From the NCBI GenBank assembly GCA_016935435.1, contig JAFGQZ010000060.1, forward strand, positions 31,262 to 95,261: a stretch of 64,000 nucleotides of DNA. The letters run 5' to 3'. Both the position numbers and the translations under genes were made by a program. Of the stretch, positions 1,061 to 56,114 are shown piece after piece. Position 1 is the stretch's first letter. Each line of letters begins with the position of its first letter. The notes under the pieces were generated by a model that saw only the letters and a program-made list of their open reading frames with translations, was not told the origin of the DNA and made no database searches. The stretch is from Bacteroidales bacterium. Lineage in GTDB: Bacteria; Bacteroidota; Bacteroidia; Bacteroidales; UBA10428.

Positions 1061-1187
1061 GAATGATGAAATTGAGAATTATTAATAGATCTAAACCCAA
1101 AACAAAAACTGGAAAAACTGTTCACTGTTCACTGTTCACTGTTCACATTAAACTTTAAACTTTAAACTTTAAACTTTAAACTTTAAA

Positions 1188-1190
<3 letters not shown>
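1061..1190. repeat. Composite simple-sequence element: GAATGA-like AT-rich module, (CTGTTCA)x4 at 1118-1145, (AAACTTT)x5 at 1150-1184 plus partial AAACTA
   Basis: Perfect tandem 7-mers read directly. The last partial unit contains the ABC-F stop codon (cta 1188-1190 = TAG on the minus strand). Confidence 0.95.
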
Positions 1191-2816
<1,626 letters not shown>

Positions 2817-2945
2817 TTAAAAGGGGTGCAAAGATAGGAATTTTATATTGATTATTAAGGTGCGGAGAGCTAAAGTTCAAAGTTTAAGGCTCTATGTTTT
2901 TTTTTCGGGTGGCTTTATAAAGATTAAAATCCAGAAGATTTAGTT

Positions 2946-3076
2946 GAATGCAGGAAATAAAATAATTAAGAATTACTGCTCACGGTTTGCTTTAAACATT
3001 GTAAAAGCAAGTAATAAGCTTAAACTTTAAACTTTAAACTTTAAACTTTGAACTTTAAACTTTGAACTTTAAACTA
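2946..3076. repeat. Composite simple-sequence element: degenerate GAATG/AT-rich and ACTGCTCAC modules, then 7 tandem AAACTTT/GAACTTT units (3022-3070) plus partial AAACTA
   Basis: Tandem 7-mers read directly. Same module order and same AAACTA terminal unit as the 1061-1190 element. It starts 19 bp downstream of the stop of the 3096..3278 ORF. Confidence 0.9.
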
Positions 3077-3095: not shown

Positions 3096-3278
3096 TCAAA
3101 CTCCCAGGTTTTTAAGGGCTTCGTAAATTAAAATTGCCGGCCATACCAAGGCTTTGATTACGCCAATTACCCCTGTCCAGAAACTGGTTGCCTGTGAAAT
3201 GAAATAAACGGCTGCGCCAATAAGGCCTAAACCGTATAATGCACCTGCCGGAGCCGATGCGGGAACATCTTTTTTCAT
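3096..3278 (-). CDS. Small two-TM membrane protein (hypothetical)
   Basis: 60 aa with two clear hydrophobic helices (LYGLGLIGAAVYFI, GVIGVIKALVWPAILIY). No competing ORF. Confidence 0.55.
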   Translation of the reverse strand: MKKDVPASAPAGALYGLGLIGAAVYFISQATSFWTGVIGVIKALVWPAILIYEALKNLGV

Positions 3279-3419: not shown

Positions 3420-4328
3420 TTAGTTTTCTAAACCGAAATATTTCGATGTTTCCTGGTAATCCATCAGGTTAGGGGCAAAGTTCTCTTTTTGCTTATTGAT
3501 TGAAGCCGGGTTAAGTACCTCTCCGGGGATTAAAACATATCGAAAGTAATTACCACGCACGGCAGAGTACTGGTATTCTGTTAAATCGGTACCATCGGTT
3601 GAAACAAGGGTAATGTATATTTTCTGTGTAAATCCGGAAGAGGTGCCCCCAAAAGAATATTGGTACCAAACATTCGACCATCGGCCTGACCCCGGCATGG
3701 GGTATATTTGGCCGGTTCCGTATTGTTTCTGGTAAACAACAACCAGGCACCTGTCTCTTTGAACGTTATTCGATAGCTGGTTTACCGGAATGGACATACC
3801 TTTTAATGTGGCGTGGTTTTGTATGTTCCAGTCGGCGCCAATCCAGGCGGAATACATAACATTGGCGGTTCCTTTTAAATTAATAGGGACTCCCCAGCTG
3901 CTGCTGGTTTTTGGGCCATATAAATCGTAAGAAGAGGTATTCAAAAAATAATCACCCTCTTTCCCTGTAGAAAGTTCGGGAGCCGTAGTGCCTGCATATA
4001 TTGCTGAGCCATCAGTGCCTGCCTCCCCGGTGTCGCCTTTGTCGCCCTTGCTGCCTGTATTTCCTTTGAGTACAATAGGTACGCCCCAGCCCGTATCGTC
4101 GCTTTTGGGGCCATACAAATCGCCTGTTGTTTTGTTTAGGTAAAAATCGCCTGCAATGCCTGCATCATTGTCAGGGGCACCGTTTCCTGCATAAATTATG
4201 CTTCCGTTGTCGCCTGCCGGGCCCTGTTCGCCCTGAAGCCCCTGCGGGCCTTGTTCGCCATCTTTGGCACAAGTAGAGAAAAGCGCCACTAATGCCAGAA
4301 TGCTAAATAAAAAAAATACTTTTTTCAT
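3420..4328 (-). CDS. Collagen-like-repeat lipoprotein with an internally duplicated module
   Basis: 302 aa. Signal peptide ending LFSTC. Two runs of six G-X-Y triplets (GEQGPQGLQGEQGPAGDNG; GNTGSKGDKGDTGEAGTDG). Each run is followed by IYAG..AP...GD(F/Y)(Y/F)LN....DLYGPK....WGVPI.LKG. An approximately 150-aa C-terminal domain follows. Confidence 0.8.
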   Translation of the reverse strand: MKKVFFLFSILALVALFSTCAKDGEQGPQGLQGEQGPAGDNGSIIYAGNGAPDNDAGIAGDFYLNKTTGDLYGPKSDDTGWGVPIVLKGNTGSKGDKGDTGEAGTDGSAIYAGTTAPELSTGKEGDYFLNTSSYDLYGPKTSSSWGVPINLKGTANVMYSAWIGADWNIQNHATLKGMSIPVNQLSNNVQRDRCLVVVYQKQYGTGQIYPMPGSGRWSNVWYQYSFGGTSSGFTQKIYITLVSTDGTDLTEYQYSAVRGNYFRYVLIPGEVLNPASINKQKENFAPNLMDYQETSKYFGLEN

Positions 4329-27082: not shown

Positions 27083-27397
27083 TTAGTTTAATGTTTGTAA
27101 AACCCGGGCCCCGCGGTTCTCTATTTCGGACGAAAGTTGCCCCGAAGTAACCTTATCGGACGAAAGTTTAAAGGTTACTGTTGAATCGGCTTTGCTGATG
27201 GCCATTTCCTCTATGCCTTCAATGGTAAAAATCATTTTCCACACCGAATCGGAAACAACAGTGTCGTTCAGGCCGGTAACTTTGTATTTGTAAACAAAAA
27301 GCTGCTCGGCAACAGGGGGGGCACTGGTTTGCTGGTTCGTGTCTTTGCAATTCGACAATATAAAAACTAAAACGGATAAAAGAAAAAGCTGTTTCAT
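27083..27397 (-). CDS. Small lipoprotein, HMA-like fold without metal-binding cysteines (hypothetical)
   Basis: 104 aa. Lipobox ILSNC. Beta-alpha-beta-like pattern YKVTGLNDTV...IEGIEEMAISKADSTVTFKL, with no CxxC. Confidence 0.6.
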   Translation of the reverse strand: MKQLFLLSVLVFILSNCKDTNQQTSAPPVAEQLFVYKYKVTGLNDTVVSDSVWKMIFTIEGIEEMAISKADSTVTFKLSSDKVTSGQLSSEIENRGARVLQTLN

Positions 27398-49592: not shown

Positions 49593-50420
49593 ATGGTAAA
49601 ACCATTAATTGATAAAGAAATCGACGGGTTTTATTCGCTAACATCTGAAAACGACCGAATGAAATTTGGCCTCGGTCCTTTAGAATTTGAACGTAATAAA
49701 GAGCTTATTCAGCGCTTTTTGCCTTCTAAAGGTGGTGTTATTGCCGATATTGGCGGTGGCCCGGGAATATATTCCGAATGGCTTGCCCGAATGGGTTTTG
49801 CTGTTTATCTGGTCGATCCGGTTGAAAAACATATTGTTCAGGCAAAGGCCAGGGCTGCGAAAGTAAAAAATGGGTTTAAGTGCATCAGGGGCGAATCGCA
49901 GAGTATTCAATTACCCGATAGTATTGTTGATATGGTAATATCCCATGGCCCGCTTTATCACTTGCAGGACAGGGTACAAAGGGAAAAAGCCCTCCACGAG
50001 TCTTTTCGCATTCTCAAGCCGGGTGGTATTTTTTTGGGCTGGGCAATTAACTATACAGCTTCAACTATTGTAGGTTTATTACAAGGCGTATTGCAGAACG
50101 ATGATGTTTTTAATATGTGCTTATCCGAACTTACAACCGGCGGGCACAATGCGCCGGAATCGATGCCGGGAATATTGCCCAAAGCTTTTTACCATAAACC
50201 GCAAGAGCTTTTCGATGAGGTAAAAGGTGCCGGGCTGGTACCTCTCGATATGTATGCAGTTGAAGGAATTATCTGGATTGAGAAAAATTATTTTGATGTT
50301 ATGGGAAAGGCTTCAAAGAAAGAAAAGTTAATGCAGTTGCTGAAGATATCAGAAACCGACAGAAATTTGCTGGCAATAAGCCCTCATGTTATGATTGCTG
50401 CCCGAAAACCTGCCGGTTAA
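49593..50420 (+). CDS. Class I SAM-dependent methyltransferase
   Basis: 275 aa. Motif I VIADIGGGPGIYS, followed by VYLVDP and ILKPGG. Confidence 0.85.
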   Translation: MVKPLIDKEIDGFYSLTSENDRMKFGLGPLEFERNKELIQRFLPSKGGVIADIGGGPGIYSEWLARMGFAVYLVDPVEKHIVQAKARAAKVKNGFKCIRGESQSIQLPDSIVDMVISHGPLYHLQDRVQREKALHESFRILKPGGIFLGWAINYTASTIVGLLQGVLQNDDVFNMCLSELTTGGHNAPESMPGILPKAFYHKPQELFDEVKGAGLVPLDMYAVEGIIWIEKNYFDVMGKASKKEKLMQLLKISETDRNLLAISPHVMIAARKPAG

Positions 50421-50447
50421 TTGTGTTTTGGCGTTGCATAACTTGTA

Positions 50448-50552
50448 AAACTTTAAACTTTGAACTTTGAACTTTAAACTTTGAACTTTGAACTTTAAAC
50501 TTTAAACTTTGAACTTTAAACTTTGAACTTTAAACTTTAAACTTTGAACTTT
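50448..50552. repeat. 15 perfect tandem heptamers (AAACTTT x8, GAACTTT x7) upstream of the hydrogenase operon
   Basis: Read directly. Unit order is A A G G A G G A A G A G A A G, where A=AAACTTT and G=GAACTTT. It begins 28 bp after the methyltransferase stop and ends 102 bp before the hydC start. Confidence 0.97.
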
Positions 50553-50654
50553 TAATAATACTCTCTATTGCTATTCTAAATAACAAATACTAACTTATTG
50601 ACCGAAATATTCTTCTAAGGCTTTAGTCCGTAACCTAAATTAAACCTGAATTGT

Positions 50655-51173
50655 ATGGAAGAACATAAGTCAATATCACAGCAAAAATGCACATGCAGTA
50701 CTACAATAGACGAAGATTTGTTGTACGAGCAGTTAGATGACATAATTGAATTGCACAAAGGCAAAGAAGGGGCGCTTATCCCCATTCTTCAAAGCGCACA
50801 GAATTTGTTCGGTTACCTGCCCGAAGCAGCGCTGAAACAAATAAGCCGGAAACTGCACAAACCGTACAGTGAAGTTGCCGGGGTTGTAGGTTTCTATTCG
50901 TATTTTTCAACAGTTGCCAAAGGAAAACATACCATAAGGGTTTGCCTGGGCACAGCCTGTTATGTGCGTGGCGGTAAAGATGTGCTTAAATCGCTTATGG
51001 ACCACCTGAAAATTAATGTGAGCGAAACAACTGCCGACCGGAATTTCTCGCTTGAAGTCGGCCGCTGCTTCGGGGCATGTGGTTTGGCCCCTGTTATTAT
51101 GGTTGACGATGTTGTTTACCAGAAAGTAAAACCATCGAAAATTGCTGAAATACTAAAGCCATACATCGAATAG
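50655..51173 (+). CDS. hydC: NuoE/HydC-like [2Fe-2S] thioredoxin-fold subunit of the hydrogenase
   Basis: 172 aa. Cys ligand pattern CLGTACYVRG ... CFGACGLAPV. Confidence 0.9.
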   Translation: MEEHKSISQQKCTCSTTIDEDLLYEQLDDIIELHKGKEGALIPILQSAQNLFGYLPEAALKQISRKLHKPYSEVAGVVGFYSYFSTVAKGKHTIRVCLGTACYVRGGKDVLKSLMDHLKINVSETTADRNFSLEVGRCFGACGLAPVIMVDDVVYQKVKPSKIAEILKPYIE

Positions 51174-51200
51174 TTTACACCCCTTTCAAGTTTATAAACA

Positions 51201-54200
51201 ATGAAAAAAATACTAACTGCCAAGGATTTAAATGCCTCTAAGGAGGAATTTGCCCCACGGGTTGCCCGGCCGGGAAACGATATACGCGAAAAAATTCTGG
51301 TGTGTACCGGTGGGGGTTGTATTGCCGGTGGATCGCTCGAAATTAAAAAACGTTTCGAAGAAGAACTTAAAAATAAAAACCTCGATAAAACGGTTAAAGT
51401 TATCGGCACCGGGTGCCTGGGGCCCTGCTCAAAAGGCCCTGTGGTTATTATGGCCAAAGAAAGGGTTTTTTATCACGATGTAAAGCCCGATGATGTGGCA
51501 GAAATTGTTCTGAGCCACATTGTTGAAGGTACAATAGTTGAAAGGCTGGTTTATAAAGACGACAGCGACAAAAAGCCCCTTCCACTGGAAAAAGACATTA
51601 AATTTTTTAAAAGGCAAACCAAGGTTGTGTTGCGCAATTGCGGGAATATCGATCCATACAGCATCGAAGATTATATTGCTGTAGGGGGGTATCAGGCTTT
51701 GGCCATGGTTATTACCAAAATGACTGCCGACGATGTAATAACCGAAATGGAAAAATCGGGGCTCAGGGGCAGGGGAGGAGCTGGTTTTCCTACGTTTATG
51801 AAATGGAAACTGGCAAAAAACAATCCATCGGAACAAAAATATATTTTGTGCAATGCCGACGAGGGCGACCCGGGTGCATACATGGACCGCAGCATTCTCG
51901 AAGGCGATCCCCACAGCATAATCGAAGGAATGGCCATTGGCGCTTATGCCATTGGCGCTTCGCTGGGCTATGTTTATGTCAGGGCCGAATACCCGCTTGC
52001 TGTCGAACGTTTGCAACATGCAATAAATAATGCCCGTGAAGCCGGCTTGCTCGGAAAAAATATTTTAAGCTCAGGTTTTTCTTTCGATTTAGAAATACGC
52101 ATGGGCTCAGGGGCTTTTGTTTGTGGCGAAGAAACAGCATTGATAGCCTCAATAGAGGGAAAACGCGGCGAACCCAGGCCCCGGCCGCCTTTTCCTGCGC
52201 AGTCGGGCTTATGGGGCAAGCCTACGGTGCTAAATAATGTTGAAACTTTTGCCAATGTTTCGGCCATTATGCTTAATGGAGGAAACTGGTACGCTTCTAT
52301 GGGCACCGAAAAAAGCAGAGGCACTAAAATATTTGCCTTGGCAGGGGCAATTGCAAATTCTGGTTTATTTGAAGTGCCTGTTGGTACAACCTTAGGCGAC
52401 TTAATATACGATATTGGTGGAGGCACAAGCAGCGGAAAGCCTTTTAAGGCAGCACAAATTGGCGGACCTTCAGGTGGGTGCATTCCCAGGCAACACCTCA
52501 ATGTGCCGCTCGACTATGAATCGCTCAACGAACTGGGCGCCATTATGGGTTCTGGGGGTCTTATTGTTATGGATGAAGATTCGTGTATGGTGGATGTGGC
52601 AAAATTTTTCCTCGAATTTGTACAGGAAGAATCATGTGGCAAATGTACCCCTTGCCGTGTCGGGACAAAACGCATGTACGAAATTCTCGAACGCATTACA
52701 ACCGGGAAAGGCAAGGAAGGCGATATCGAAAAGCTGATAGACTTAGGTCAATATATCAAAAAAACGGCCCTATGTGGGCTTGGCCAGTCAGCGCCAAATC
52801 CGGTGCTTTCAACCATAAGGTATTTCAGGCATGAGTACGAAGCACATATCAAAGAATACAAGTGCGAAGCTGGAGTTTGTTCCGATTTGGTTCGTGCTCC
52901 TTGTCAAAGTGCATGCCCTGCCGGGGTCGATGTTCCCGGCTTTGTGTCGCTGGTGGGCGAAAAGCGCTATGCCGAGGCATTGAAATTGCACCGCGAGCGC
53001 AACCCTTTTGCAGCAGTATGTGCCCGGGTTTGTTTCCACACCTGCGAAGATAAATGCCGCCGTTCTACAATTGATGAGCCGGTTTCTATTCGCGGTACTA
53101 AACGTTTTATGGTCGATCAGGAAATAACTGTTCAACTGCCCGAGATAAAAGAAAATGCAGCAAATGCCTCGAAGAAAATTGCCATTGTCGGCGCAGGCCC
53201 TGCCGGCTTGTCGTGTGCGTATTTTCTGGCACGTTTGGGTTATAAGCCAAAAGTATTTGAGGCGGAATTCCGTCCGGGGGGCATGTTGGTGCAAACAATA
53301 CCTGCATACCGGCTTCCCAGGGAAATTTTGGCTCGCGAGATACGTATGATCGAGAACATGGGGGTCGATATTGAAACAGGTAAGAAGCTGGGAACCGACT
53401 TTACCCTGTCATCTTTAAAGGATGAGGGGTACGATGCAGTTTTTCTGGGCGTTGGTGCCCCCAAGGGTCTGAAACCCAATATTCCCGGAATCGATACGGA
53501 CGGAGTTGTTGATGCGCTTCAGTTTCTTCAAACCTATAACCTGCGTGGTTCTGTTCCGGTTAAAAAGAAAATAATTGTTGTAGGCGGGGGCAACGCGGCC
53601 ATCGATGCTGCACGGACAGCAATTCGGCTTGGCGCCGAAGAAGTTCGGGTAGTGTATCGCCGTACGCAGGAAGAAATGCCTGCCTGGGCCGAAGAAATCG
53701 ACGCCGCCATTGAAGAAGGCATATTGCTCCACACCCTTACAAACCCTGTCGAAATTATCAGTAAAAATGGAATAGTATCGGCCGTAAAATGTACTGCCAT
53801 GAAATTGGGCGATTTCGACAAGAGTGGCCGAAGGGCTCCTGTAACAGGTGATGAAACGTTTGTTTTCAATGCCGATCAAATAATTTTAGCCACTGGGCAA
53901 ACATTAGATTGTTCGGTAATTTTTAACGGTATTGCCCTAGAAACAAAAGATAATAATAAAATTAAATGCAATCCGGTTTCAGGGCAGACATCGGTGCCCT
54001 GGATATTTACCGGGGGCGATGCAGCTACCGGCCCTTCGTCGGTTATACAAGCTGTGGCTGGCGGAGAGGCTGCTGCTGTTGGCATAGATGAATTTCTTAC
54101 CGGCGAAAAGCATGCCTTCTGGCGCGAACATAAAAAGGTTGATACGTTCTTCGACCCGGATGACGAACCGGCACCATTCCCACGTAAGAACATGACACTT

Positions 54201-54314
54201 CTTTCGGTCGAACGGCGCAAAGTAAACTTCGACGAGGTTGAACAGGTTTGGGCAGAAGGCGAAGCTGTACGCCAGGCAAAGCGTTGCCTGCGCTGCGATT
54301 ACGGAAAATGTTAA
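51201..54314 (+). CDS. hydB: NuoF/HydB-like FMN/[Fe-S] subunit fused to a GltD/NfnB-like NAD(P)H:FAD oxidoreductase
   Basis: 1037 aa. N-terminal [2Fe-2S] fold (VCTGGGC...GTGCLGPC). NuoF core (GLRGRGGAGFPT, CNADEGDPGAYMDR, ESCGKCTPCRVG). From about aa 555, GltD-type motifs: CQSACPAG...NPFAAVCARVCFHTCEDKC, IAIVGAGPAGLSCAYFLARLG and VVGGGNAAIDAARTA. Confidence 0.9.
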   Translation: MKKILTAKDLNASKEEFAPRVARPGNDIREKILVCTGGGCIAGGSLEIKKRFEEELKNKNLDKTVKVIGTGCLGPCSKGPVVIMAKERVFYHDVKPDDVAEIVLSHIVEGTIVERLVYKDDSDKKPLPLEKDIKFFKRQTKVVLRNCGNIDPYSIEDYIAVGGYQALAMVITKMTADDVITEMEKSGLRGRGGAGFPTFMKWKLAKNNPSEQKYILCNADEGDPGAYMDRSILEGDPHSIIEGMAIGAYAIGASLGYVYVRAEYPLAVERLQHAINNAREAGLLGKNILSSGFSFDLEIRMGSGAFVCGEETALIASIEGKRGEPRPRPPFPAQSGLWGKPTVLNNVETFANVSAIMLNGGNWYASMGTEKSRGTKIFALAGAIANSGLFEVPVGTTLGDLIYDIGGGTSSGKPFKAAQIGGPSGGCIPRQHLNVPLDYESLNELGAIMGSGGLIVMDEDSCMVDVAKFFLEFVQEESCGKCTPCRVGTKRMYEILERITTGKGKEGDIEKLIDLGQYIKKTALCGLGQSAPNPVLSTIRYFRHEYEAHIKEYKCEAGVCSDLVRAPCQSACPAGVDVPGFVSLVGEKRYAEALKLHRERNPFAAVCARVCFHTCEDKCRRSTIDEPVSIRGTKRFMVDQEITVQLPEIKENAANASKKIAIVGAGPAGLSCAYFLARLGYKPKVFEAEFRPGGMLVQTIPAYRLPREILAREIRMIENMGVDIETGKKLGTDFTLSSLKDEGYDAVFLGVGAPKGLKPNIPGIDTDGVVDALQFLQTYNLRGSVPVKKKIIVVGGGNAAIDAARTAIRLGAEEVRVVYRRTQEEMPAWAEEIDAAIEEGILLHTLTNPVEIISKNGIVSAVKCTAMKLGDFDKSGRRAPVTGDETFVFNADQIILATGQTLDCSVIFNGIALETKDNNKIKCNPVSGQTSVPWIFTGGDAATGPSSVIQAVAGGEAAAVGIDEFLTGEKHAFWREHKKVDTFFDPDDEPAPFPRKNMTLLSVERRKVNFDEVEQVWAEGEAVRQAKRCLRCDYGKC

Positions 54315-54344
54315 CAGGGCGATAATGTTTAAAATACAATTATA

Positions 54345-56114
54345 ATGAGCACAATTTCAGTAACAATAAATAATATAAAAGTTGATGTTGAAAGCGGTAG
54401 TACCATACTCGATGCTGCAAAAAAAGCCGGGGTAAAAATACCAACGCTTTGCCATGTCGAATCGCAAATTCCTAAAGGTGCATGCCGTGTTTGTATGGTC
54501 GAGGTCGAAGGCGCCCGCAGCCTGGTTGCTGGTTGTACTACACCAGCTACAAATGGTATGGTAGTGAAAACCAATACCAAAAATGTGCGCGATGCACGCA
54601 AATTTGTTTTGGAACTACTGCTCTCTGAGCATTGCGGCGATTGCAAAACCTGTGAACGCAACAACGATTGCGAACTCCAGGCACTTGCCCGAGAAATGGG
54701 CATTTCGCAGGTAACCTACGAGGGCGATTGCCTGGTTTCGGTTATTGACGATTCGACGCCGGCACTGGTGCGCGACAGCGGAAAATGCATTAAATGCCGG
54801 CGGTGTGTCACTGTCTGTAACGAAGTGCAGGAAGTTGGTTCCTTATTTCCTCAGGGAAGAGGTTTCGAATCGAATATTGGGCCTGCATTTGATCAACACC
54901 TGGCAGAAGTGCCTTGTGTACAATGCGGACAGTGTTCTGCAATTTGCCCGGTTGGGGCAATTATTGAAAAAAGCCATATCGAAGGAGTATGGGCTGCACT
55001 TGATAACCCCGATAAGTTTGTAGTTGTGCAGACAGCGCCGGCAATACGTGCTGCTCTTGGCGAATGTTTCGATTATGAGCCTGGCACCCTGGTTACCGGT
55101 AAAATGGTTACTGCCCTTCGCCAGCTTGGGTTCGACAGGGTTTTCGACACCAATTTCACTGCCGACCTTACCATTATGGAAGAGGGCACAGAGTTGCTGG
55201 TGCGCCTGAAAAAAGCCCTTGTCGATAAAGAAAAAGTTGCCCTTCCCCAATTTACCAGTTGTTCGCCTGGCTGGATAAATTATGCCGAATATTTCTATCC
55301 CGAAATACTCGACAATATATCTTCGTGTAAATCGCCCCAGCAAATGTTTGGTGCGGTAGCAAAAACATACTATGCAAATAAAGTTGGCAAAAAGCCCGAA
55401 GATATTATAGTTGTTTCTGTAATGCCCTGTACCGCAAAGAAATTCGAGGCACAGCGCCCCGAAATGAACAGCAGCGGGGTTTGCGATGTCGATTATGTTT
55501 TAACTACCCGCGAATTGGGAAAGATGATAAAACAAGCCGGTATCGATTTTAAAAACCTGCCCGAAGGTAAAATGGACTCGCCATTGGGCCAGAGTTCGGG
55601 CGCTGCCGATATTTTTGCCAATACCGGCGGTGTAATGGAAGCCGCCATCCGCACAGCATACGAAATTGTTACAGGCCGTGAATTGCCTCTTGAAGGTTTA
55701 CATATTCAACCTATTATGGGGCTCGAAGGTGTAAAAAGGGCTTCATTGAAAATCGAAGGTACAAAACCTGAATGGAGTTTCCTCGAAGGGGTTGAACTAA
55801 AGGTTGGCGTGGCACATGGATTAGGTAATGCACGCAGAATAATAGAAATGATGCAATCGGGCGAGGTATTTCATTTTATTGAAGTTATGACCTGCCCCGG
55901 CGGGTGCATTGGAGGTGGCGGACAGCCCCGCTTTACTACCGATGAAGTGAGGAAAAAACGTATCGAGGCAATTTATAAAGAAGATGAGGGTAAAAAACTC
56001 CGGAAATCGCACGAGAACCCCGAAATATTGCAGATTTACGAAGAGTTCCTGAAAGAACCTCTGAGCCATTTGTCGCATAAATTGCTGCACACACATTACG
56101 TTTCGAAGAATTAA
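54345..56114 (+). CDS. hydA: [FeFe]-hydrogenase catalytic subunit (M3 architecture, group A-like)
   Basis: 589 aa. N-terminal [2Fe-2S]; His-ligated [4Fe-4S] (HCGDCKTCERNNDC); two ferredoxin-type clusters (CIKCRRCVTVC, CVQCGQCSAICP). H-cluster motifs: L1 FTSCSPGW, L2 MPCTAKKFE, L3 EVMTCPGGCIGGGGQP. Confidence 0.93.
   Translation: MSTISVTINNIKVDVESGSTILDAAKKAGVKIPTLCHVESQIPKGACRVCMVEVEGARSLVAGCTTPATNGMVVKTNTKNVRDARKFVLELLLSEHCGDCKTCERNNDCELQALAREMGISQVTYEGDCLVSVIDDSTPALVRDSGKCIKCRRCVTVCNEVQEVGSLFPQGRGFESNIGPAFDQHLAEVPCVQCGQCSAICPVGAIIEKSHIEGVWAALDNPDKFVVVQTAPAIRAALGECFDYEPGTLVTGKMVTALRQLGFDRVFDTNFTADLTIMEEGTELLVRLKKALVDKEKVALPQFTSCSPGWINYAEYFYPEILDNISSCKSPQQMFGAVAKTYYANKVGKKPEDIIVVSVMPCTAKKFEAQRPEMNSSGVCDVDYVLTTRELGKMIKQAGIDFKNLPEGKMDSPLGQSSGAADIFANTGGVMEAAIRTAYEIVTGRELPLEGLHIQPIMGLEGVKRASLKIEGTKPEWSFLEGVELKVGVAHGLGNARRIIEMMQSGEVFHFIEVMTCPGGCIGGGGQPRFTTDEVRKKRIEAIYKEDEGKKLRKSHENPEILQIYEEFLKEPLSHLSHKLLHTHYVSKN

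Follow-up and report, generated by a model that had tools for sequence, protein, structure and literature searches.

An RAACTTT heptamer array between a methyltransferase gene and an [FeFe] hydrogenase operon in a Bacteroidales MAG, a probable fast-evolving simple-sequence repeat

Arrays of tandem heptamers have been recorded in bacteria since 1990. Heptamers are reportedly the most abundant class of long simple-sequence repeat in many bacteria, with polymerase slippage given as their origin (Mrazek 2007, as cited in PMC4679880, PMC4692102). The same sources describe cyanobacterial STRR and comparable repeats as tandem 7-nt units without spacers, present many times per genome and mostly intergenic, and the array that we describe here is alike in each of these respects (Mazel 1990; Mrazek 2007; PMC4679880, PMC4692102). 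It also shares with them the mixing of different heptamers, the lack of conservation between relatives and the proposed slippage, but the hosts there are cyanobacteria, Xanthomonas and Burkholderia, whereas the host here is a Bacteroidales MAG (PMC4679880, PMC4692102). The TAACTGA repeats of Beggiatoaceae, Cyanobacteria and some Bacteroidetes likewise occur in scattered phyla as mixed heptamers (MacGregor 2015, PMC4679880). As with the present unit, one orientation of TAACTGA carries stop codons in all frames while the other is open and found within ORFs, and long Bacteroidetes arrays are missing from close relatives (PMC4679880).

The window, by which we mean the whole 64-kb stretch of DNA analysed, comes from one sample, and what we say of the host's own genome covers this stretch. 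The array lies upstream of a hydrogenase operon (50655..56114, plus strand) in the following setting.

49593..50420, plus strand: class I SAM-dependent methyltransferase gene, UbiE/COQ5 type (Pfam)
50448..50552, plus strand: the array, (RAACTTT)15, unit first bases AAGGAGGAAGAGAAG, with a 21-bp superperiod
50553..50567, plus strand: U/A-rich tail TTAATAATACTCTCTA directly 3′ of the array (with the last unit, ACUUUUAAUAAU)
50568..50586, either strand: near-palindrome TTGCTATTCTAAATAACAA, within a block of about 100 bp kept upstream of hydC in relatives (TTGTTATTCTAAATAACAA)
50655-51173, plus strand: HydC-like 2Fe-2S protein (Pfam)
51201-54314, plus strand: NuoF-like/GltD-like fusion protein, 1037 aa (Pfam)
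54345-56114, plus strand: [FeFe] hydrogenase HydA, 589 aa (Pfam)

A sequence-only reading of this DNA had proposed an intergenic heptamer microsatellite of 15 uninterrupted RAACTTT units between the methyltransferase stop and the hydC start, and this description is confirmed. The 15 units of 50448-50552 stand head to tail with 0% indels, and they vary at unit position 1 alone, in the order A A G G A G G A A G A G A A G that had been given. The array begins 27 nt after the methyltransferase TAA at 50418-50420 and ends 102 nt before the hydC-like ATG at 50655. Tandem Repeats Finder assigned it a period of 7 with 15.0 copies (score 161), as well as a superperiod of 21 bp (96% matches, score 194), and the window has 25 two-unit RAACTTT matches where shuffles predict 0.01. 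The same reading had set 7 bp out of phase with the DNA helix, which is correct for a single unit, but three units span 21 bp, which is two helical turns and also the length of the superperiod in the A/G pattern. The absence of spacers and indels, the beyond-chance length, the presence of dispersed mixed arrays and the turnover between relatives are those of a heptanucleotide long simple-sequence repeat. A CRISPR array, with repeats of about 24-48 nt and unique spacers, is excluded by 7-nt units without spacers, as had been recognised from the letters. TTTAAAC as a −1 frameshift slippery site is irrelevant here, since the array lies outside coding sequence and its frames are closed by stops. 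We also rejected a link between the array and the methyltransferase gene, which follows a ROK-family gene, because its Pfam family comprises UbiE/COQ5-type small-molecule enzymes and not DNA methyltransferases.

Among tandem periods of 5-12 with arrays of at least three units, the window contained none except period 7, represented by four arrays of two unit types (three RAACTTT, one ACTGTTC). Besides the array upstream of hydC, these and an inverted partner are located as follows.

1117..1146, minus strand: (GAACAGT)4 array, ACTGTTC x4 on the plus strand, directly after (AAAGTTT)6
1148..1189, minus strand: second RAACTTT-type array, 6 units; the minus strand reads TAG TTT (AAAGTTT)5 AA
2872..2885, minus strand: exact two-unit inverted copy, 134 nt from the third array
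3020..3075, minus strand: third RAACTTT-type array, (AAAGTTY)8, upstream of the ABC-F start codon

The ABC-F gene, whose protein was not on record, ends in the TAG of the second array at 1188-1190, and the third array begins about 20 nt past the stop of a 60-aa membrane-protein ORF (3096-3278) that is conserved in a relative, L152. Together with its inverted copy, the third array gives the plus-strand order 5′-(AAAGTTY)2 ... (RAACTTT)8-3′ across 2872-3075. The earlier count of at least four other intergenic sites for the unit is roughly right: two are true arrays, one is the exact dimer and one is a dimer with a single mismatch at 27163-27176; looser matches are no more frequent than chance would give, with 7 expected when up to two mismatches are allowed. 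Single RAACTTT copies outside arrays are not enriched either, with 20 observed and 18.8 expected. All three RAACTTT arrays read in this sense on the plus strand and yet occur in both orientations relative to genes, so that two of the three are transcribed in the opposite, AAAGTTY, sense. The GAACAGT units can pair with AAAGUUU units as 5-bp helices, in a fold of −14 kcal/mol (z −1.9), and GAACAGT differs by one base from the cyanobacterial STRR3 unit, CAACAGT. In a Thermodesulfovibrionia MAG (L043), GAACAGT also stands beside a GAACTTT array. In the same part of the window, a 302-aa lipoprotein-like ORF (3420-4328, minus strand) carries collagen-like G-x-x repeats, for which the Pfam Collagen match is weak and below cut-off.

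We next compared the spacers with those of relatives. Two relatives, L119 and L122, encode methyltransferases 66-68% identical to that of the window, and both keep the order methyltransferase, hydC, hydB-like, hydA, with the gene order of the operon itself the same. Neither carries a heptamer array in the methyltransferase-hydC spacer. A block of about 100 bp upstream of hydC (50556-50654), 3′ of the array, aligns with both, and upstream of this block the array stands where L119 and L122 have unrelated sequence. The 19-nt palindrome is near-perfect in both relatives, in an 8-3-8 arrangement (TTGTTATT CTA AATAACAA); its counterpart at 50568-50586 is a candidate operator of the [FeFe] hydrogenase operon.

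Several other features of these loci were recorded in passing. The HydB-like subunit (51201-54314) forms one polypeptide with a GltD-like NAD(P)H-dependent oxidoreductase domain and is of equal length in L119 and L122; this fusion is an unusual architecture for a HydABC-type hydrogenase. Where the window has the ROK gene, the two relatives carry a 146-aa Y1 transposase (PF01797, RAYT-like) directly upstream of the methyltransferase gene (1602-2042 in L119, 281-721 in L122). The methyltransferase-hydC spacer of L122 is enlarged to 623 bp and contains a repeated element, GGTCTTTTGACCA...CCAAACTCT, twice at 1780-1960, which may be a MITE-like insertion in the same spacer.

For the other two RAACTTT arrays of the window a closer relative is L152, in which ABC-F is 93% identical and the gene order is the same; the best homologues of the window's ABC-F point towards the neighbourhood of Prolixibacteraceae. 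Neither of the two L152 spacers has an RAACTTT or GAACAGT array. They contain short degenerate period-7 runs instead, AAAATTA x3.7, ATTTTCA x3.4, AATTGTA x3.7 and CCAATAG x4.6 (141-166, 235-258, 1996-2021 and 2044-2075). In L153, which is 83% identical, the ABC-F/CvfB spacer measures 10 bp against 148 bp in the window. As L152 and L153 show, period and place recur in the lineage while the unit sequence does not, and the L152 heptamers point to a lineage-wide period-7 process with rapid turnover of units. By this comparison, the arrays inflate spacers that may otherwise be nearly missing.

These observations suggest, with moderate confidence on our part, that the array is a lineage-specific, slippage-driven, fast-evolving heptanucleotide simple-sequence repeat with a new unit. 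Under this explanation, slippage of the replicating strand would generate and resize the array. MutS-type mismatch repair handles loops of up to about 4 nt. Loops of 7 bases would be too large for it, which would leave the locus hypermutable, and arrays would persist where they do no harm. The array would lengthen its spacer in 7-bp steps with incidental consequences, and transcription arriving from the ROK-methyltransferase unit could yield, again incidentally, an RNA in which a long hairpin interrupted by mismatches precedes a U-rich tract. Judged from the sequence comparison, the array is, most likely, dispensable filler that follows the upstream gene, and not a built-in hydrogenase switch. 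It lies in the methyltransferase 3′ flank, upstream of the conserved control region, and thus outside the regulatory design of the hydrogenase; a built-in switch is also unlikely because close relatives do without the array. The locus amounts to a clean experiment of nature: one and the same operon, with its control region, exists both with the 15-unit array and without it, and this speaks against a regulatory role built in at this place. The array probably has no sequence-specific role for the hydrogenase, a dedicated role in its regulation is unlikely, and under this explanation the array would lack a selected function. Slippage alone nevertheless leaves unexplained how one unit seeds several loci per genome, along with a polarity relative to stop codons, a fixed order of inverted partners and in-frame arrays, all of which we describe below.

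The sequence-only reading had judged the unit too short and AT-rich to form a stable hairpin. This is true only of the DNA, for which a hairpin or cruciform was rejected (−1.4 kcal/mol, z +1.1). As plus-sense RNA, the array is quasi-palindromic, and the predicted structure is a single long, imperfect hairpin (−16.0 kcal/mol, z −7.9) that 0/200 shuffles equalled; the minus sense reaches a predicted −12.6 kcal/mol (z −5.5). The predicted plus-sense hairpin is composed of 6-bp helices split by C.C mismatches, in which AAACUUU units pair with themselves save for one C.C mismatch and the G units join through G.U pairs. Its U-rich tail, UUUUAAUAAU, follows directly. Pure 15-unit RNAs gave −10.7 for GAACUUU, −0.3 for AAAGUUC, −16.3 for AAACUUU and −33.7 for AAAGUUU (kcal/mol), while 15 units of TAACTGA gave 0 in either sense, so self-folding is not general to abundant heptamers. 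That the hairpin is far better than its shuffles could reflect selection.

To see how the unit behaves elsewhere, we scanned one genome per GTDB species for (RAACTTT)5, which returned at least 116 loci. Among the matches listed, at least 14 phyla are represented, by record titles, and the hosts include the isolates Flavobacterium longum, Chryseosolibacter histidini and Hanamia caeni as well as long-read assemblies. Across 805 kb around the 116 listed loci, period-7 arrays of at least four units numbered 193 against 11 for periods 5, 6 and 8-11 together, and 62/193 of these listed period-7 arrays had other units, many of them one-base variants. Gene calls in the other genomes are ORF-based, and because the listed loci were selected for at least five exact units in one register, phases with zero extension are inflated. 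In IMG/VR, five-unit arrays occurred at 5 loci for GAACTTT, 2 for CAAGTTT, 1 for AAACTTT and 20 for TAACTGA, with 1, 0 and 0 for the scrambled units GTTACTA, GATCTTA and GATTCAT; strongly self-complementary permutations of the unit were absent from IMG/VR as five-unit arrays. Some units are clearly commoner than others, but these IMG/VR numbers are too small for a claim that RAACTTT is favoured.

Among the matches listed, convergent spacers make up 28% of the array-bearing ones against 15-16% otherwise, and divergent spacers 7% against 18-24% (p = 4e-4 to 2e-3). Orientation matters as well. Arrays read in the AAAGTTY sense start at most 12 nt past the preceding stop codon in 27/47 listed cases, with a median of 10 nt, whereas the RAACTTT sense does so in 3/58, with a median of 81 nt (Fisher p = 2e-9). 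Frequently the junction is TAG TTC or TAA GTTC (listed loci L003-L118), which places the stop codon within a first unit that has mutated. We considered whether degenerate flanking units produce this asymmetry and rejected the idea, as the in-phase decay is symmetric on both sides; period-7 autocorrelation among the listed matches was 0.39 in the 5′ flank, 0.30 in the 3′ flank and 0.26 far away. In addition, inverted partners of at least two units within 120 nt lie 5′ of the RAACTTT array in 23/111 listed cases and 3′ of it in 1/111, against 1/214 in control windows. The resulting order, 5′-(AAAGTTY)m...(RAACTTT)n-3′, places the A-tract and T-tract outermost, as in a bidirectional terminator, and since this order is its own reverse complement, neither strand nor direction of transcription can explain it. 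The window fits these patterns. Of its two AAAGTTY-sense arrays, one lies 0 nt from a stop codon and has the partly complementary GAACAGT array behind it; the other lies about 20 nt from a stop codon and has a partner dimer on its 5′ side.

These results bear on a reading in which the array is a REP-like or terminator-like hairpin with a selected function, ending or stabilising the ROK-methyltransferase transcript and insulating the hydrogenase operon. Its location between a stop codon, 27 nt away, and the conserved hyd control block, the predicted RNA fold with its U-rich tail, the enrichment in convergent and depletion in divergent spacers and the bidirectional-terminator polarity of the partners (the last two among the matches listed) are all what such a hairpin would show, and the earlier suggestion of a terminator or insulator was to this extent compatible with what we found. 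It failed on the terminator consensus. A search of 50300-50760 for intrinsic terminators (G+C-rich stem plus U tract) returned 0 sites; with no G-C pairs in the predicted stem and a C.C mismatch every 7 nt, no consensus terminator could be called at the array. Terminator-like consensus sites across the window were at chance level only, which leaves no local standard for comparison, and Rfam gave 0 matches at E <= 1 over 50300-50760. Further, the array is missing in relatives with the same gene order, members of the family lie within operons (atpG-atpD, L095) and within genes, where termination would be harmful, and TAACTGA, the most abundant heptamer tested, folds in neither sense. We therefore regard a selected hairpin of this kind as unlikely, though it is the main rival to the slippage explanation, and the RNA hairpin may have a weak REP-like or terminator-like effect on the upstream transcript.

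The arrays inside genes raise a separate question. Pure (AAAGTTC)5-7 arrays are stop-free in all three frames and encode KVQSSKF in each, and among the matches listed, in-frame arrays occur in the stop-free orientation only. Arrays lie in frame within single Pfam alignments in aspartyl-tRNA synthetase (AspRS), methionine aminopeptidase (Map), BirA and NuoJ, in HisH at the same site in two MAGs, in chorismate synthase (AroC) in two genomes and in an AAA_28 kinase of the isolate Hanamia caeni BO-59; in leucyl-tRNA synthetase (LeuRS) and UbiD they are in frame between matched Pfam stretches. These loci (L055, L071, L046, L047, L032, L052, L102, L078, L011, L057 and L110) come from several phyla. 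Single-unit growth in essential genes would mean lethal frameshifts along the way, so we infer that such tracts arose by three-unit steps or by insertion in one step. Five tightly flanked ‘intergenic’ arrays that we tested all lie between complete, different genes (for example atpG/atpD, L095), and no split gene was found among them.

On another reading, RAACTTT/AAAGTTY arrays would be cross-phylum, polar, REP-like intergenic elements laid down in blocks. The AAAGTTY starts at or within 12 nt of stop codons, the single partner order, the preference for gene 3′ ends and the in-frame copies fit this reading, which we consider improbable. Were it true, the arrays would be made by a process of their own, for example template switching onto arrays already present or the action of an unknown enzyme, or else selection would act on the RNA, and the array in the window would be one copy of such an element. 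We treat the polarity rules and the in-frame insertions as leads, not as conclusions. If they hold up, they would provide testable alternatives to slippage in the form of a terminator-stem origin, block insertion or RNA-level selection.

The array had also been proposed as a slipped-strand contingency locus in which copy number tunes hydrogenase expression. Haemophilus influenzae hmw1A/hmw2A offers a precedent for such an effect, in that its 7-bp repeat likewise lies upstream of its operon and a mechanism has been tested there in which the number of copies determines expression through the 5′ UTR, and a long perfect repeat 102 nt upstream of an operon start codon invites the comparison (PMC12721329, PMC8262952). 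The hmw repeat, however, separates mapped promoters from the start codon and shows polymorphism in patients, whereas here the control region is 3′ of the array (PMC8262952, PMC12721329). With the conserved block and palindrome between array and hydC, the promoter and operator probably lie 3′ of the repeat; relatives run the same operon without it, and the other arrays of the window follow unrelated housekeeping genes. Neither of two consensus searches placed a promoter: the sigma-70 scan gave nothing meaningful at the locus and chance-level sites across the window, and the Bacteroidetes-type promoter (TTTG ... TANNTTTG) sought near hydC had no match in the window or in L119. To our knowledge, a hydrogenase is not a typical phase-variable surface function. 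These findings, above all the conserved hydC block 3′ of the array and the array-free operon of the relatives, weaken the proposal to the point that we think it very unlikely.

Also very unlikely is a row of sites for a protein that binds single-stranded nucleic acid and covers about 7 nt, such as a cold-shock protein or ribosomal protein S1. The earlier reading had offered binding sites for a DNA- or RNA-binding protein as a possible role, an idea that would rest on analogy. The strict 7-nt register and the CUUUG/CUUUA within the unit would suit such a protein, MacGregor published a proposal of this type for TAACTGA (PMC4679880), and among the matches listed, forward-sense arrays often end 5-30 nt before start codons. 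Yet two of the three window arrays are transcribed in the opposite sense, close relatives have different units at the same spacers, the distance to hydC is 102 nt, and the orientation bias in distance to start codons was not significant among the matches listed (p = 0.12 and 0.57).

An independent Logan short-read assembly of SRR13394437 carries both junctions of the array, with the first 4-5 and last 4 units the same; its contigs stop inside the array, leaving the copy number of 15 without a second witness, and the right junction had no match in JGI metagenomes. That the array is an assembly artefact, or its copy number in the MAG wrong, is hardly credible: the genome is a MAG and the independent assembly breaks within every array, but both junctions and their flanking 4-5 units were reproduced independently, an array of 105 bp can be spanned by a single 150-nt read, and arrays of this kind are also found in genomes of isolates and in assemblies from long reads (Flavobacterium longum, Hanamia caeni, OY970288.1). 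Independent contigs built from short reads of the host (L001, L002 and L154) end at every heptamer array, from which it follows that such arrays fragment k-mer assemblies exactly at gene boundaries. Arrays that break short-read assemblies at these places matter for MAG quality.

The array belongs to a known, poorly understood class of bacterial heptamers, with a unit that is unreported in searchable papers; our search of the searchable literature for RAACTTT in bacteria returned nothing relevant. Compared with TAACTGA, whose arrays have 2-6 units and lie mostly directly upstream of start codons, the RAACTTT arrays show a polarity of stop codons and inverted partners that is not described for that repeat (PMC4679880). 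The GGGAATC/GGGGAYT repeats of Xanthomonas and Nostoc are, like RAACTTT, intergenic, sometimes arranged in inverted pairs and extensively variable in length and sequence between close species, but they are G-rich and form G-quadruplexes, which RAACTTT cannot (Rehm 2015, PMC4692102). RAACUUU RNA is predicted to self-fold, in contrast to that of TAACTGA. The folding invites comparison with REP/BIME and the Rickettsia palindromic elements, which are short, repeated intergenic sequences that can form hairpins, lie preferentially at the 3′ ends of genes and lack conservation across species. REPs require a RAYT transposase; the 64-kb window yielded no Y1_Tnp (RAYT) homologue. Rickettsia palindromic elements insert in frame into genes, as arrays of the RAACTTT family do in other genomes. 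Both REP/BIME and the Rickettsia elements are unit-length palindromes, whereas the repeats here are tandem heptamers.
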